A DNA stretch of 64,000 bases from Candidatus Latescibacterota bacterium (GTDB taxonomy: Bacteria; Latescibacterota; UBA2968; GCA-2709665). A model generated the notes under the pieces. That model worked only from the letters and a program-made list of their open reading frames with translations. It was not told where the DNA came from and ran no database searches. The DNA is taken from positions 4,384,001 through 4,448,000 of the forward strand of contig OZ242180.1 of the NCBI GenBank assembly GCA_965205485.1, written 5' to 3'. Position numbers and translations under genes: made by a program. The first letter of the stretch is position 1. Each line of letters starts with the position of its first letter. This document shows positions 28,518 through 41,047 of the stretch, one piece after another.

Positions 28518-31500
28518 GTCATTTACGTGATATGTGGCTTCCGGGAGGTTGAAGTTGTCCCGCTTTCGCGGACAGACGGGGTCAGAAGGTCCAGGCGGCC
28601 TGGAGGCGGAGGGCCTGGTTGACCGGCTGTCGGCCTGTGGGCGCCTGGCGCCGGCCTTCGAAATTCAGGGTCAGGCCCGCGGCCCGACGGACGTCCACTC
28701 GTAGCCGCGTCCCGGCCCGATAGGCACGGGTCCGGCCTTCCGCCAGAACGGCGCCCGCATACGGTGTCAGGATGCCCGTGCCGAACGGCGCGGGCATCCC
28801 GTAGCCCACGTCCGTAGTCAGTCGGCCAGCCTTGCCCCGTGTCTTCTGCGGCGCCAGGCCCTGCGTGGTCTGCCGCGACCACAGGCCGTCGATGCCGCTG
28901 CGGGCCGCACCCCAGGTCGGCGCCAGGGTCAGCGCCGGGCCCTTGCCGTTGGCCCCCGGGGCCAGGCGTACCATCCCGCTCGCCCCCCATTCCTGATAGT
29001 CCTCATCTTCGTGGGCCAGGAGGCCGCGCACAGCGCCCTCGAGGGTCAAGCCCAGGGTCGGGATTGCGTATTGCACCCGGCCCCCCACTTCCAGGCCGAA
29101 GCCCGTCTCGGCGTCGCCAGAATCATGCCGCAGGCCCAGTTCCACCGTCGGCGTCAGGCGGCGCCCACCGGCCCACGTCACCCTCCGGCTCCCTTCCAGG
29201 ACCAGCCGCACACGGTGCGCGTCGGCATCCGTCTCAGCCAGCCCGGCGACCGCGTCCGTACTCGTGCGCGTCAACAGGGCATCCGAGCGCGTGGCCAGTT
29301 GAAAGTCTCCGGTATCCCGGGCGGCCAGCAGAATGCCCCGGCCCCCGAACGCACCCATGACGAAATCCGTGTCCGCCTCCAGGGTCCCTTCGGGCACGTC
29401 CCACTTTGAATCACCCCGACCGTAGCCCACCATGCTCCAGACGTCCAGCCGCTCGGTGACGGCGTAGCGCAGGTAGGGATGCAGACTGGTCAGGACGGTT
29501 TCGAGGTCGCCCGTCCCACGCTTCCCGGTCCCAGTCATGTTGTACCCCCCGTCACCCCGGCTGTGGGCTGCCGCCACACCGACTTGCAGCCGATCCCATT
29601 CGCCGTCAACGCCCACGGTGCCCGTAAACACGTCCCCGTCGATCGCCAGGCCGCCGTCCTGGCCGTCGAACGCGGTGCCTGCGAACCGGCTCCAGGCCGT
29701 CAGGAGCGGCATCGCGGTGCCGGCCCCGGTCCCGTTCAGGTTGAGCCGGAAAGAACTGCCCAGCAGGACCTGACGCAGATTGAAGGTCGGGCCGAAATCC
29801 AGGATCCGGCTCAGCCCCGATCGGGTGTCCGGGCCGGGGCCGATGAGCCAGGGGGAATCCGTGGCGGCCGCGCCCGCGCCGGGCCCAATCCCCAGGACCC
29901 CGGCCACTTCGGCCAGGACCGCTAACGCCGTAGAGGATGAAGCGCCGGGGACCCCAACGGTCGAACCGGCCGGCTCTCCCTCACCCCGATCGCTCCCACC
30001 GGGGGCGAGGGCTCCTCGGCCATCCTCAGCCGCACCCGCGGCCCGCCGGCCCAGAGGCACCTGGTAGCCGCCTACCGTCAGGTGGGAGCCTCGTCCGGGC
30101 GCGCTCCACAGCCGCTCGCCCACCGCGTCCGCGACGTGCGTACCCACCGTCCGTCCAAACCGCGACAGCCACGCCCGCTGCAGCGGATCGGAGTTTTTTA
30201 TCGTCCCTGTGGCCGTGGCATCGGCCAGGTACGCCCCCGACGGGTTCGAGAGCGTGAGCGTCATCGTCTCGCTCTCCTCGTCATGCGTATCGTCCAGCAC
30301 CGCCACCGACACCGTCTGTCCGGTCTCGCCCGCGGCGAAGGTGAGGGTCCCGCTCGCCGCGGTGTAGTCTATGCCCGCAATCGCCGTGCCGTCGCTCGTA
30401 GCCCAGGCCACGGTCACAGGCCCCGAGACCGACCGGTCGAGCGTCACCATAAACGCCAACGCCGCGTCGGGGCCTTCTTCCACCTCCGCGTCCGCCACCG
30501 ACAGACCCGGCGGGCCCCGGACCGTCACCTTCGGCGTGTTCGACAGCGCCCGGCCGTCCGGCGTGCAGATCGCCCCGGCGTCGGCGCAGCCGCCGGTCGT
30601 TGCCGGCAACGTCACCGTCACGTCAGCCGAACCCGACGGCTTAATGCGCACGATCCACCGGTCGTACTCCGCGGGGTCCGTCCGGCGACTGCCTCTGACT
30701 GTGCCGCCGGTCACCTGAAGGGCATCCCGGACCGCCCGGTTCTTGTTGAAGCCCTCGTTGCCGTCGAACACCTCCGCGCTGAAGGCGAGCTCGAGCGTGA
30801 ACCCGCTCGACCCGTCGTGCTCGGCGGGCGCGTTTTCGAACGCCGCGGTAAGCGGGGACGCGGACCCCTCCGTCGCGCTGGTATCGGACACGCTGATCGT
30901 CGGAGTGATCGTCGTGCTCGGGCACGTCTGCGCCGAGGTGCGCAGACAGACGGCGCCCGTACCGCCGTCGGGCAGGGTCGTCGCGAAGGTGGACGCGTTC
31001 AGCGACGCCGCGTTGGCATCCAGCCAGGTCTGGCCCCAGGTGAACCGATCGCCGTTACGCACGGCGGCGCTCAACGGGAGGGTCTCACCCGCCCACTCCA
31101 GGGTCAGGTCCGAGAGCGATTCCCCGCGGCTGCGGACCTGGAAGACCACGCCGTCGGCATACGCGACGACGATCTGCGCCTCGTAGGCACCCGACCTGTA
31201 CTGGAACCTGTATTCGGACACCCCACCCAGATCGGGACTGGCGATCCTCGAGTAGCCCCGATAGCCGTTCCGGGCGTCGACCGTCAACGTCGTCGACCAG
31301 GGTGGATCGGTGAAAGGCGCCGTTCCGGTAGAGTCGCTCACGTCTATGGTGAAAGTCCGGGAGTTGCCCGTACCGAAGCCTCCCGTGGAAGTCGCAGTGA
31401 TGGTCACCGTATACGAATCCCTGGTGGGGACCTCCTTCATCATGAGGTTGGAGCGATTCAGCTCGAAGGAATCGGAGTCGCCGCCCGTACCGATCCCGTA

Positions 31501-31624
31501 GACGGGGTTCTGCCCGTCAAGGAAGGCATTCTGCGCGGAAAGGCGTCCGACGGTTCCCAGCGTATCGCTATAGTCGATTGACGCGTCATCCAGCACGATG
31601 TACCAGCTTCCGAGGTTCTGCTCA

Positions 31625-32545
31625 AAGGCCGATGCGTCGTCGAACATGTTGTTCATGGAGGTGGCAGACGACACGTCCCAGGAGTCCAGGGGTTGGTTGA
31701 AGGAGGTGGCGTTATAGAACATGTCGAACATGTTGGTCACGGACGACACGTCCCAGGAGTTCAGGGGCTGGTTGAAGGAGGAGGCGCCGGCGAACATCCA
31801 CACCATGTCCTTCACAGACGACACGTCCCAGGAGTCCACGGCGCCATTGAAGGAGGAGGCGCCAGAGAACATGCTGGCCATGGAGGTCACAGACGAGGGG
31901 TTCCAGGAGTCGAGAGGCTGGTTGAAGGAAGACGCGTTGCGGAACATGTTGTTCATGTCGGTCACAGACGACACGTCCCAGGAGTCCAGTTCGCCGTTGA
32001 AGGAGGAGGCGTTGCGGAACATCCAGAACATTTTGGTCACAGACGACACGTCCCAGGTGTTCAGGGGCTGGTTGAAGGAGGAGGCGTCCTGGAACATGCG
32101 GTTCATGTCGGTCACAGACGACGTGTTCCATGAGTTCAAGGGCTGGTTGAAGGCGGTGGCGTGAGAGAACATGGCATGCATGTCGGTCACCGACGACACG
32201 TCCCAGGAGTCCAGGGGTTGGTTGAATGGGGTGAAGGCGAACATGCCGGTCATGTCGGTCACGGACGACACGTCCCAGGAGTCCAGCGGCTGGTTGAAGG
32301 AACGGGCGTGAGAGAACATGCCGTCCATGTCGGTCACGGACGACGTGTTCCAGGAGTTCAGGGGCTGGTTGAAGACGGGGTTTCTGAAGAACATGTTGTG
32401 CATGGAGGTCACAGACGACACGTCCCAGGAGTCCAGGGGCTGGTTGAAGGCAGAGGTGTCCCAGAACATTCCGTACATGTTGGTCACCGAGGAGACGTCC
32501 CAGGAGGAGATATCGCCGTTGAAGGAGGTGGCCATGTTGAACATG
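31625..32545 (-). repeat. 75-bp DUF285 tandem array 2 (~12 units)
   Basis: Recurring GACGACACGTCCCAGGAGTCCAG...GGTTGAAGG at a 75-bp period. Confidence 0.85.
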
Positions 32546-33199
32546 TAGCTGGCGTCGGTGACGCGCGAGAGGTCGGGGGCGTCCGTCGCATTGTATCCCA
32601 TGTTCGACGCGCCCTGGAACGCCTCGTGCATCGACGTCCACCGGGCCGTCCCCCACTGGTCGACGGAGACCAGCCTGTGCGCTACCGCGCGGTCGGCGAG
32701 GTGGAATCGGGTGATGCCGTCGGATATGCGCACCGTGTAGGTACCGGCGGAATCATACCGGTGGGACTTTCTTCCGCTAACGTTCTCTTCCACGGTCCCG
32801 TCGCCCCAGTCGATGGTGTACGTGCCGCTTGCCGGAATGGTGATGGACTGGCCGGGCGCGGTGGTCTTCCACGTGGTGACAAAGGCCGACCCGGACAAGT
32901 AGTTGGGCAGTCCCGATACGTCTATGGTAAACGTCCGGGAGTTGCCGGAGCCAAAGTCTCCCGTGGAGGTCGCCGTGATGGTCACCGTGTACGCGTCCCT
33001 GGTGGGGGTCTCCTTCAGCATGAGTTTGGTGCCGTTCAGCTCGAAGGAGCCGGAGTCGCCGCCCGGGCCTATCCCGTAGACGGGGTTCTGCCGGTCAAGG
33101 AAGGCGTTCTGCGCTGATATGCGCCCGACGGTTCCCGTTGTATCGCTATAGTCGATTGACGTGTCATCCAGCACGATGTGCCAGTTTCCCAGGTTCTGC

Positions 33200-34200
33200 T
33201 CGAAGGCGGATGCGTCTTCGAACATGTAGCTCATGCTGGTCACGGACGACACGTCCCAGGAGTCCAGGGGCTGGTTGAAGGCGGTGGCGCCGTAGAACAT
33301 GTCCACCATGCTGGTCACAGACGAGACGTCCCAGGAGTCCAGGGGCTGGTTGAAGGCGGTGGCGCCGGCGAATATGCTGTACATGTTGGTCACAGACGAG
33401 ACGTCCCAGGAGTCCAGGGGCTGGTTGAAGGAGGTGGCGCCGTAGAACATGCCGGCCATGGAGGTCACAGACGACACGTTCCAGTCGGAGACGTCGCCGT
33501 TGAAGGAGGTGGCGCCGTGGAACATGCTGCCCATGTCGGTCACAGACGACACGTCCCAGGAGTCCAGGGGCTGGTTGAAGGAGGTGGCGCCGCGGAACAT
33601 GTAGTTCATTGTTTTCACCGACGACACGTCCCAGGAGTCCAGCGGCTGGTTGAAGGAGCGGGCTTCCTCGAACATGCCGTGCATTGATTTCGGAGACGAC
33701 ACGTCCCAGGAGTCCAGGGGCTGGTTGAAGGAGCGGGCGTGGCGGAACATTTCATACATGTAGGTCACCGACGACACGTCCCAGGAGTCCAGCGGCTGGT
33801 TGAACGCGTAGGCGCGGTTGAACATGCCGTTCATTGTTTTCACCGACGACACGTCCCAGGAGTCCAGCGGCTGGTTGAAGGAGTGGGCGTTGGAGAACAT
33901 GGAGAACATTGGTCACAGACGACACGTCCCACGAGTTCAGGGGCTGGTTGAAGGCATGGCGGTGGAGAACATGCGCGCTATCCGGTCACCGACGACACGT
34001 CCCAGGAGTCCAGGGGTTGGTTGAAGGAGCGTGGCGCTGGAGAACATCAGCGCCATGCTGGTCACAGACGAGACGTCCCAGGAATTCAGGGGTTGGTTGA
34101 AGGCATCGGCTTTGTGGAACATGTGCGATTTCATGTTGGTCACAGACGAGACGTCCCAGGAGGACAGGTCGCCGTTGAAGGATGAGGCACCATAGAACAT
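33200..34200 (-). repeat. 75-bp DUF285 tandem array 1 (~13 units)
   Basis: Same unit; several 5' units carry small indels. Confidence 0.85.
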
Positions 34201-34814
34201 GTAGCTGGCGTCCGTGACGCGCGAGAGGTCGGGGGCGTCGGTGGCGTTGTATACCATGTTGGATGCGCCCTTGAACGCCTCATGCATCGACGTCCACTCG
34301 GCCGTCCCCCACTGGTCGATGGATACCAACCTGGGCGCGACTCCCCGGCCGTTGGCGAGGTGGAATCTGGTGATGCCGTCGGATATGCTCACCGTGTAGG
34401 TACCGGCGGAATCATACCTGTGGGTCTGCCTGCCCCTGACGTCCTCTTCCACGGTCCCGTCGCCCCAGTCGATGGTGTACGTGCCGCTTGCCGGAATGGT
34501 GATGGACTGGTTGTTCGCTGTCGTTCGCCACGTGGTGACAAACCAGCTGGATGGGATGGATTGGCCATGTGCTGCGTCAGGACTGACAGCAACGGCCACG
34601 CACATGGCCACCACCAATACAAATAGAATGTCGTGGAATCTGGTTCTACGCATATGAATCTCCTGCATATGGCTGATCGACATTGGGGGTCACGGGATCG
34701 TGGCTCAGGTCATCGGCCACGTCCGTCACGAGATCCCGCATGCATGTATCGTCTGCGACGATGCGTATACAGAGTGATCTTCCGGTTGAGACGGTCTCCG
34801 GTCTACCTTGCTCG

Positions 34815-39312: not shown

Positions 39313-39341
39313 TTGACAATTCGTGGCCGAGCTTCTATCTT
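39313..39341 (+). promoter_or_regulatory. sigma70 promoter for the metG leader
   Basis: TTGACA (39313-18), 17-nt spacer, TATCTT (39336-41). Confidence 0.75.
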
Positions 39342-39369
39342 TACGCGCACACAATAAGGGGTACTTTAA

Positions 39370-39528
39370 ATGAAATGCGTTCAGATTTCAGCAAACAAGC
39401 GCCATGTATCGGGGCGACCCTCAGCCTTAAGGCATGGCACGGCGTCGACTCGCGTCGCCGCGATTGCGATGTGCATGATGTCCTCCTTCTCTAACGGACA
39501 TCCCGCGGCGGAGCATTCCATGAATTGA
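39370..39528 (+). CDS. Putative Met-rich leader peptide (52 aa)
   Basis: AAGGGG upstream of ATG; MKCVQISANKRHVSGRPSALRHGTASTRVAAIAMCMMSSFSNGHPAAEHSMN*; ATG TGC ATG ATG at 39469-39480. Confidence 0.6.
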   Translation: MKCVQISANKRHVSGRPSALRHGTASTRVAAIAMCMMSSFSNGHPAAEHSMN

Positions 39529-39557
39529 ACTGAACGACATTGGTACCGTAATCGACC

Positions 39558-39596
39558 AACCCACCGCCGGCGGATCGGCGGTGGGTTTTTCCTTTT
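39558..39596 (+). terminator. Attenuator terminator upstream of metG
   Basis: AACCCACCGCCG-gcggat-CGGCGGTGGGTT then TTTCCTTTT, ending ~15 nt before the metG ATG. Confidence 0.85.
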
Positions 39597-39610
39597 CCAG
39601 AGGACTCGCC

Positions 39611-41047
39611 ATGAAGACCGCCTATGTATCGACGTCGATTCCCTACGTCAACGCCCGCCCACACGTGGGCTTCGCGCTGGAGCTCGTTCAGGCCGACGTG
39701 ATCGCCCGCTGGCGCCGGCTGCAGGGCGACGACACGTTCCTGCTGACCGGTACGGACGAGAACGCTTTCAAGAACGTGCAGGCCGCCGAGAGCGAAGGCC
39801 TGACCCCCCGGCAGCTCTGCTACCGGAACGCCGCTGTCTTCCGGGACCTCGCAAGGGCCCTCGATATCTCTTATGACGCTTTCATTCGCTCCTCCTCCGA
39901 CGCCCACTTCCGCGGGGCCTCCCGGTTCTGGACGGCCTGCCGGAAGGAGGATATCGTCCTCAGAAAATACCGGGGTCTGTATTGCGTGGGCTGCGAAGAC
40001 TTCTACTTGAAAAGGGATCTGGCCGACGGACGGTGCCCGGTACATGGCGTCGTTCCCGAGAACGTCAAGGAAACGAACTATTTCTTCCGCCTGTCCGCCT
40101 ATCAGAAGCTGCTGGAGACGCTGATAGCATCCGGGAAGCTTCGCATTCTCCCGGAAACCAGGCGAAACGAGGCGCTCGGGTTCATCCGCCAGGGCCTGCA
40201 GGATTTCAGCATCTCCCGCAATCGGGAAAGATCGGGAGGCTGGGGCGTGCCCGTGCCCGGTGACCCGACGCAGGTCATGTACGTGTGGTTCGACGCCCTG
40301 ACCAACTACCTCACCGGCCCCGGTTACGGTTCAAACGAAGGCAATTTCGAACGCTACTGGGAGAACTGCTCCCACAGGATCCACGTGATCGGCAAAGACA
40401 TCCTCAAATTCCACGCGATATACTGGCCGGCACTGTTGCTCTCAGCCGGCCTGCCGCTGCCCCGGACGATCTTCGTCCATGGACACCTGACCGTGGAGGG
40501 TCGCAAGATCGGCAAGTCGCAGGGCAACGCCGTGGATCCGTTCCCACTGATCCGGCGATACGGCGCCGACGCCCTCAGGTACTACCTGCTCCGCGCCGTA
40601 CGCTCAGGAGAGGACGGAGACGTATCGGAAGCCCGGCTCCGGGACCTCTACAACGCGGACCTGGCGAATGGCCTGGGGAACCTGGTGCGCCGGCTGGAGG
40701 CCCTCTGCGAGAGGTCCGGTCACGGTCCGGTGGATTCGTGCGACACCCGGATTTCGCCTGACCTTAGCGGCGCGCTGGACAGATTCGACTTTGCCGGCGC
40801 ACTCCGGACGATCTGGCAGCGAATCGGAAAGCTGAACCGCGAAATCGACGCGGCACGCCCCTGGGAATTTATGAAAAGACAGAAGGCCGGGAGGTTGTCT
40901 GAACACCTCACGGCCTGGGTCGGATCCGTTCTGGAAATTTCGCGGGTAATTAGACCCTTTCTTCCCGGTACTGCCAATAGAATCGAAACCGGTTTTTCGA
41001 AGTCCCGGATACAAAAAAGCCAGCCGCTTTTTCCAAGGCTGACATAA
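39611..41047 (+). CDS. metG: Methionine--tRNA ligase (short form, variant signature motifs)
   Basis: GAGG before ATG; SIPYVNARPHVGF, TGTDE, YCVGCE...CPVH, YVWFDAL, IGKDILKFH, KIGKS; no C-terminal tRNA-binding appendix. Confidence 0.92.
   Translation: MKTAYVSTSIPYVNARPHVGFALELVQADVIARWRRLQGDDTFLLTGTDENAFKNVQAAESEGLTPRQLCYRNAAVFRDLARALDISYDAFIRSSSDAHFRGASRFWTACRKEDIVLRKYRGLYCVGCEDFYLKRDLADGRCPVHGVVPENVKETNYFFRLSAYQKLLETLIASGKLRILPETRRNEALGFIRQGLQDFSISRNRERSGGWGVPVPGDPTQVMYVWFDALTNYLTGPGYGSNEGNFERYWENCSHRIHVIGKDILKFHAIYWPALLLSAGLPLPRTIFVHGHLTVEGRKIGKSQGNAVDPFPLIRRYGADALRYYLLRAVRSGEDGDVSEARLRDLYNADLANGLGNLVRRLEALCERSGHGPVDSCDTRISPDLSGALDRFDFAGALRTIWQRIGKLNREIDAARPWEFMKRQKAGRLSEHLTAWVGSVLEISRVIRPFLPGTANRIETGFSKSRIQKSQPLFPRLT

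Follow-up and report, generated by a model that had tools for sequence, protein, structure and literature searches.

A Candidate Methionine-Sensing Leader-Peptide Attenuator before an Auxiliary Methionyl-tRNA Synthetase Gene in a Latescibacterota Bacterium

Introduction

Can the gene of a methionyl-tRNA synthetase (MetRS) be controlled by a ribosome that reads methionine codons in a leader peptide? This question is raised by a locus in a 64,000-nucleotide stretch of DNA from Candidatus Latescibacterota bacterium (assembly GCA_965205485.1, contig OZ242180.1, positions 4,384,001–4,448,000, forward strand), which as a whole is referred to as the window and whose numbering is used for this locus throughout. 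On the plus strand of the window, a leader open reading frame (ORF) of 52 codons (39370–39528), which contains the codons Met34-Cys35-Met36-Met37 (ATG TGC ATG ATG, 39469–39480), is followed by an intrinsic terminator (39558–39596) and by the gene for a short MetRS of 478 amino acids (39611–41047, with the ATG at 39611). Very probably, transcription of an auxiliary MetRS gene is attenuated here by a ribosome that responds to the level of charged elongator tRNA-Met. A Met-sensing leader-peptide attenuator had been proposed in an earlier reading of the DNA letters alone (the sequence-only reading), and this proposal is supported by the enrichment of Met codons in distant leaders, by joint changes of the RNA segments in relatives and by the matching of leader codons to downstream genes across the class.

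Methionine is missing among the amino acids for which leader-peptide attenuators were found in the literature searched; it is sensed there by S-adenosylmethionine (SAM) riboswitches or T-boxes (PMC1262725, PMC3771891). The leader of a Met-codon attenuator can only be initiated with Met-tRNA, and a working attenuator of this kind would therefore raise, in testable form, the question of whether the initiator tRNA is spared while elongator tRNA-Met loses its charge. The short MetRS, for its part, gains a likely role as an inducible back-up.

Methionine Specificity of the Leader

Gene calls made on this genome for the analysis place a terminator in 169 upstream regions, and 110 of these also have an upstream ORF. 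At least three Met in six codons are found in a single one of the 110, the leader of the short MetRS gene, and an upstream ORF with such a cluster before a terminator arises in 9 of 5000 shuffles of this leader. The cluster is absent from all 14 upstream regions of housekeeping-type metG genes that were inspected for it.

For the comparison of short-MetRS loci outside the genus, 197 loci were reduced to 145. Left out were 8 duplicates, 14 loci of the housekeeping type, 14 of the genus, 11 that had no start or too little upstream DNA, and 5 with a repeated upstream region. A terminator lies within 200 nucleotides in 26 of the 145, and ten of these 26 have at least three Met in six codons versus 0.09 expected from shuffles. 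The next excesses are those of Ser (8 vs. 4.8) and Pro (6 vs. 3.2), and no other residue is enriched to the degree of Met. Three of the ten Met leaders share the scaffold of the window leader. The others, which are of Chloroflexota, alphaproteobacterial and metagenome origin, differ from it in sequence, and a quick tree puts them on separate branches away from the window clade. The unrelated leaders, of 22–57 codons, have only the Met cluster in common. Examples of Met-rich leaders before a short MetRS are those in records of Pelagibius sp. (L077), a Rhizobiaceae metagenome-assembled genome (MAG; L114), Rhizobium sp. (L050) and Actinorhabdospora filicis (L076). Antiterminator pairings are clear in L077 (−16.0) and L114 (−18.8), and for L050 and L076 no terminator was found by the script. 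Since L077, L050 and L076 show that cultured alphaproteobacterial and actinobacterial strains carry analogous leaders, the type is open to bench testing.

Matching of Leader Codons to Downstream Genes across the Class

With a covariance model built only from the 17 Met leaders, 132 genomes of the class were searched, and 30 matches outside the training set were read: 13 that the search gave directly as loci, and 17 out of another 20 full-length matches. Part of the score of these matches is generic terminator likeness. Six of the 30 similar leaders have no identifiable amino-acid gene downstream. Among the remaining 24, 21 have at least three cognate codons in eight, against a mean of 9.6 and a maximum of 18 in 20000 label permutations, where it should be noted that the labels of multi-gene operons were chosen after the peptides had been seen and that kin are not independent. 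His codons are found before hisI or his operons (three of these cases were tied to his genes only by eye, by likeness to the methyltransferase-hisI-hisG operon of this genome), Thr codons before threonyl-tRNA synthetase (ThrRS), Ile codons before IleRS-like genes (PF00133, DUF5915; in part presumptive calls), Trp codons before TrpRS, Val codons before ilvB and Asn codons before a non-discriminating AspRS. A shared ancestry of the attenuator leaders of the class is suggested by these likenesses.

Several of the leaders deserve mention on their own. L277 (G020:C1:2108941–2109083, minus strand) has four Asn codons in eight, an antiterminator and a terminator, precedes the gene for a non-discriminating aspartate–tRNA(Asn) ligase and is thus a candidate for an Asn-tRNA-sensing attenuator. 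A Trp-Trp-Trp leader with terminator (L203, genome contig C1, 1326549–1326725, plus strand) stands before the single trpS of the genome, and a His-rich leader with a similar segment 2 (the strand that would form the antiterminator, see below) and terminator (L281, about 1237870–1237590, minus strand) before methyltransferase-hisI-hisG. Before the gene for anthranilate synthase component I, a frame that is rich in Tyr and has a single Trp and a single Phe is followed by a terminator (L282, about 2084100–2083800, minus strand), which is possibly an attenuator responding to aromatic amino acids.

In other genera the operons that contain the short MetRS also hold an archaeal-type ThrRS, prs, hisG or hisI and stand under mixed His/Thr/Met leaders (L222, L223, L224 and L232 from G015, G017, G043 and G037); several of their ORFs look broken in the assemblies. 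Two His-rich leader-plus-terminator units are arranged in tandem before a short MetRS-like gene (L220:877–1153 and L221:1706–1401), which in L220 has hisI and a phosphoribosyl pyrophosphate synthetase gene downstream. ThrRS, MetRS and HisI are zinc enzymes. A reading that covers the His, Thr, Ile, Trp, Ile/Leu/Val, Asn, mixed His/Thr/Met and pure Met leaders, and for which we consider the chances evenly balanced, is that in this class one scaffold of segment 2 plus terminator has been copied around the genome and re-tuned by codon swap; that the Met version came from the multivalent leader (His/Thr/Met) of an operon with ThrRS, MetRS and prs/his genes; that the ribosome can sense elongator tRNA-Met even though initiation needs Met; and that the short MetRS steps in under stress when the main enzyme fails.

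Conservation of the Leader in the Genus

The genus comparison comprises 14 leaders of short-MetRS orthologs. The leader ORF has 52 codons in 13 of them and encodes 50 amino acids in L010, which carries a 1-nucleotide deletion 3′ of the Met cluster. Over codons 2–43, the leader frame is free of stops in all 14, and stops interrupt the two alternative frames in 13 and 7 leaders, respectively. ATG is found at codons 34 and 36 in 14/14 and at codon 37 in 13/14, and codon 35 is variable (TGC, TAC, CGA or CGC for Cys, Tyr or Arg). The upstream ORF and its Met cluster, whose loss from orthologous leaders would have spoken against a sensor function, are thus both kept in the genus. Ala46 and Ala47 are encoded by GCG GCG in 14/14 leaders with no synonymous change, which appears as a constraint at the nucleotide level and coincides with segment 2. 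That the Met codons could be alternative starts of a shorter leader was considered and rejected because no Shine-Dalgarno-like site is seen by eye before Met34, and the upstream start keeps its Shine-Dalgarno-like site and its frame in 14/14 leaders.

A long and conserved leader ORF also brings to mind nascent peptides such as TnaC or plant CGS1, which arrest the ribosome. The signal would then be a small molecule (methionine, SAM or a drug) rather than a shortage of Met-tRNA. The length of 52 codons and a few residues that are fairly well kept, including Thr27, Val29, Ile32 and His49, would agree with this, but the peptide as a whole drifts (pN/pS 0.74), the unrelated leaders mentioned above have no more than the Met cluster in common, and similar leaders carry other cognate codons. 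Moreover, the geometry is such that stalling switches the gene on, which fits a shortage of tRNA. We therefore hold nascent-peptide arrest to be highly improbable.

RNA Pairings

The RNA of the window leader can be divided into four segments, for which energies of −25.0 kcal/mol (3:4), −24.6 kcal/mol (1:2) and −18.6 kcal/mol (2:3 duplex) were calculated. The terminator hairpin 3:4 was confirmed as first drawn, with segment 3 at 39558–39569, segment 4 at 39576–39587 and 13 pairs by scan in the stem (39558–39587), after which the T tract is broken by CC. The 2:3 pairing could not be kept as written by the sequence-only reading: that helix is not continuous, and the best duplex, which has one bulge, joins segment 2 (39503–39511) with 39564–39573. 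The core of segment 2, the 5′ strand of the antiterminator, is CGGCGG (39506–39511), encoded by Ala46-Ala47.

Segment 1 (39455–39486), the 5′ arm of the anti-antiterminator, has two registers, 39455–39462 plus 39477–39483 or 39477–39486. The first of these is the one originally drawn, of which the fold (−24.6) and the outer helix (88% of cells paired in the genus) stood, whereas its exact register, with a poorly conserved inner helix, is uncertain; the RNAalifold consensus prefers 39477–39486 with 39507–39517. The placing of the Met codons on the 5′ arm of 1:2 was correct for Met37 and the G of Met36, which are in the GATGTCC arm, and not for Met34 and the rest of Met36, which fall into the loop that separates the two 5′ arms. 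A ribosome stalled at codons 34–37 would cover either form of segment 1.

For covariation, the 14 genus leaders were combined with those of the class-level relatives L021, L117 and L118. In these 17 sequences, 97.1% of the antiterminator cells are paired, with 3 of 6 pairs changed on both sides, and 100% of the terminator cells, with 6 of 12 pairs changed on both sides. Segments 2, 3 and 4 change jointly in L021, L117 and L118, and neither the antiterminator nor the terminator score was reached in 500 shuffles. The covariation looked for in relatives was thus found, with the signal coming from these three.

The Met stretch can also pair with the ribosome-binding site (RBS) and start of the MetRS gene, and control might then be exerted mainly at translation initiation: a stalled ribosome would unmask the RBS, and the terminator would be leaky or secondary. 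Such a pairing can be formed in 14/14 genus leaders with −7.5 to −17.1 kcal/mol (−13.5 kcal/mol in the window leader; values to be read without a shuffle control). In addition, seven relatives (L014, L018, L019, L020, L022, L116, which is also listed as L176, and L117) have a separate leader without terminator, in which a −1-frame ORF extends into the start of the MetRS gene within the last 130 nucleotides and a Met-containing stretch pairs with RBS plus start codon (−15 to −27 kcal/mol). This second type stands in tandem behind the terminator-type leader in L014, L018, L022 and L117, and in the first three of these the T tract looks degraded. In window-type leaders, however, the register of the RBS duplex varies and the duplex is often weak, whereas the terminator shows perfect conservation and covariation with segment 2. 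Control mainly at initiation is therefore very unlikely for the window leader; that RBS pairing adds a second layer of control to termination is quite possible, though less likely than not.

A folded leader before a synthetase gene could finally be a riboswitch of the T-box or SAM kind, bind a protein or simply give rise to a terminated small RNA, with the Met codons as a structural by-product. The whole leader indeed folds better than 200 of 200 shuffles (z −3.35), and Met37 can sit in a conserved helix. Yet Met34 and Met36 are invariant outside the consensus helices, and the start codon, the Shine-Dalgarno-like site and the frame of the leader ORF are kept. A search for T-box and SAM models, which had been called for as a possible refutation, gave no match in Rfam at the gathering score in the window and none up to E 10 on the leader. 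No other Rfam model reached its gathering score in the window either, and the sole Rfam match on the leader up to E 10 is a minus-strand one to the terminator hairpin (24 bits versus a gathering score of 60). No SAM-I riboswitch was found in the genome among the 150 of 333 candidates that were scored. A diverged T-box can escape Rfam (PMC5314783); the leader region here is taken up by a conserved ORF. This group of explanations appears extremely unlikely.

Weighing of the Attenuator Reading

A number of observations weigh against a Met-sensing attenuator. In the distant set, 16 of the 26 terminator loci have no cluster of three Met and 119 of the 145 loci have no terminator within 200 nucleotides. 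In the codon series, L251, L268 and L271 (3 of 24) do not match their downstream genes, and in the genus one ortholog, L018, has only two Met codons. The inner 1:2 helix is paired in 84.5% of cells without compensatory change in the genus, and the exact 1:2 register is probably best regarded as ambiguous. In the register that RNAalifold prefers, a conserved CAU is the partner of the Met37 AUG, which may therefore be kept partly for structure. Shuffled sequences reach the energy of the 2:3 duplex alone in 123 of 2000 cases when shuffling is local and in 805 of 2000 when the whole leader is shuffled, and the covariation of 2:3 within the genus is not above that of shuffles (131 of 500), where it is uninformative because 2:3 is nearly invariant. 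The two-sided changes described above come from three sequences and reflect probably one or two evolutionary events.

Further points come from folding with a simulated ribosome. When both the RNA under the ribosome and that on its 5′ side are blocked, the probability of 2:3 pairing is 0.86–1.00 at codons 34–37 in 14/14 leaders; its mean is 0.95–0.96 at the Met codons, 0 from codon 44 onward and 0.41 without ribosome. When the 5′ RNA is left free, the means are 0.49, 0.34 and 0.20 at Met34, Met36 and Met37, to be compared with the same 0.41, and the window leader yields 0.19, 0.03 and 0.01 versus 0.46 without ribosome. The outcome thus depends on the model: equilibrium folding switches only when the RNA behind the ribosome is blocked, and shows no clean switch when the 5′ RNA is free. 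Full-length equilibrium folds always yield the terminator, even with a stalled ribosome, and any switch must therefore be kinetic. A long-range helix between 39374–39390 and 39526–39541, which closes the untranslated leader, is part of the minimum free energy structure; 82.5% of its cells are paired and one pair shows a two-sided change. It crosses 2:3 in the window leader, so that the two cannot coexist in a nested model, and it may favour termination when no ribosome loads. Taken together, the folding results are compatible with the attenuator model and would not amount to proof of it.

It should also be considered that translation of the leader cannot begin without Met-tRNA, which the same enzyme has to charge, and that the response could be blunted by this. 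In the trp system, super-attenuation is found when the leader is not initiated (PMC1183508), and by analogy this would apply to the Met leader.

Proposed Mechanism

The sequences show the anatomy of the locus, its conservation, its Met specificity, the covariation and what gene lies downstream. For the attenuator we infer that the leader is translated, that stalling occurs at the Met codons in response to a physiological trigger, and that the order of folding is kinetic. The ribosome would translate the 52-codon leader and, as long as Met-tRNA is plentiful, would pass codons 34–37 and cover or clear segment 2 (codons 45–47), in which case 3:4 would pair and transcription would stop near 39590. 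If no ribosome loads, 1:2 and the long-range helix would also end in termination. When charged tRNA-Met is short, either by Met starvation or by failure or inhibition of the main MetRS, which are the candidate triggers, the ribosome would wait at Met34, Met36 or Met37 and mask segment 1. CGGCGG (39506–39511) would then pair with CCGCCG (39564–39569) before segment 4 is made, resulting in read-through into the short MetRS gene.

The Short MetRS

The gene behind the leader is not the housekeeping metG. The sequence-only reading had named it metG, and its identity as a MetRS gene was borne out at the level of sequence: the reading frame is intact, and the product passes TIGR00398 (metG) with 405.2 bits versus a cut-off of 336.35, scores below the cut-offs of the longer PRK models, and has MetRS as best PDB matches. 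It is a second copy: the genome also encodes a MetRS of 634 amino acids (at 4581276–4583180 of the genome), to which the short copy is 39–40% identical and whose C-terminal extension it lacks. By these comparisons the short MetRS is an auxiliary paralog. Among the other genomes of the genus it was found in 13 of 14, and within the class, with this genome counted, in 24 of 132; its closest named records are MAGs of Latescibacterota or Gemmatimonadota.

A zinc-free paralog was considered and ruled out, the short copy having kept the knuckle Cys-x-x-Cys…Cys-x-x-His; the main copy has Cys-x-x-Asp…Cys-x-x-Cys there, residues which we take to be the ligands. The short MetRS has His-Val-Gly-Phe and Lys-Ile-Gly-Lys-Ser, and the main copy His-Leu-Gly-His and Lys-Met-Ser-Lys-Ser, at the class I signature motifs. 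Judged from the sequence, these altered motifs may change the binding of ATP or of inhibitors. The genome has three tRNAs with a CAT anticodon; tRNA identity rules mark one of them as the initiator and the remaining two as elongator and Ile2 tRNA.

Two side observations may be added. In L022 (G011:C5:1245474–1246908), the short MetRS is broken into two frames near residue 136, due to either an assembly error or decay. Genome-wide there are 14 matches to the homocysteine S-methyltransferase domain PF02574, several of them clustered near 2.56–2.60 Mb.

Further Features of the Locus

The positions given in the sequence-only reading for promoter, leader ORF, Met codons, terminator and MetRS start all agree with the sequence. 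The promoter is of the sigma-70 type (39313–39341), with TTGACA (39313–39318) as −35 element, a spacer of 17 nucleotides and TATCTT (39336–39341) as −10 element. It is the single promoter-like site between 38800 and 40000 (shuffle mean 0.5), and in the 14 genus leaders its −35 element is invariant and its −10 element nearly so. A purine-rich Shine-Dalgarno-like site (39356–39362) precedes the leader ATG in 14/14, with pairing energies of −6.3 to −8.9 kcal/mol calculated with an anti-Shine-Dalgarno motif. Near the leader stop there are TGA codons at 5-nucleotide spacing in all three frames (39516–39533), and stops in all three frames are kept at this place in 11 of 14 orthologs. The RBS of the MetRS gene reads AGAGGA (39599–39604). 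Elsewhere in the window, on the minus strand (28582–34683), a long protein with many 25-residue repeats is split over two ORFs; we take it to be BspA/DUF285-like.

Comparison with Known Systems

The mechanism class is textbook knowledge, and a conserved leader-peptide attenuator with methionine specificity was not found described. The search for a Met-codon attenuator covered titles and the starts of abstracts, mostly outside the subscription journals, and metG leaders could be listed in the supplements of screens (PMC2965389, PMC5314783).

Closest in logic are the classical synthetase attenuators, namely that of gammaproteobacterial pheST and those of trpS and leuS reported in Streptomyces (PMC1262725, in which methionine control is assigned to S-boxes). 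In common with them, the Met leader has a leader ORF with cognate codons and an antiterminator that overlaps a GC-rich terminator with a U tract. Unlike them, it senses methionine, and its 52-codon ORF runs through segments 1 and 2 with the stop about 15 nucleotides past segment 2. Rfam, the sole comparison made, indicates no sequence kinship with known synthetase leaders.

That an attenuator controls an auxiliary synthetase has precedents. Vecchione and Sello reportedly described one on an auxiliary, antibiotic-resistant TrpRS. His leaders are found before hisS paralogs of bacilli (PMC2965389). As in these two systems, a second copy of the synthetase is under a leader with cognate codons and the main copy is not. 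The difference is that the enzyme here is a MetRS and not a TrpRS or HisRS.

Methionine-related termination control is known from the Met-specific T-boxes of Bacillus cereus metS and Staphylococcus aureus metICFE-mdh and from the S-box SAM riboswitches, which bind tRNA or SAM directly, the S. aureus T-box preferring the initiator tRNA (PMC3771891). The Met leader is like these in that premature termination is tied to the status of methionine or Met-tRNA, and unlike them in that it matches none of their models and would read elongator tRNA-Met through the ribosome.

A precedent for a newly found amino-acid specificity are the polycysteine small ORFs of mycobacteria, which are leaderless attenuators responding to cysteine at the level of translation (bioRxiv 10.1101/834739). 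Their sequestering of the Shine-Dalgarno sequence resembles the second leader type of the relatives, whereas the Met leader of the window is terminator-based. What the Latescibacterota locus adds to these systems is mainly a natural codon-swap series within one bacterial class.

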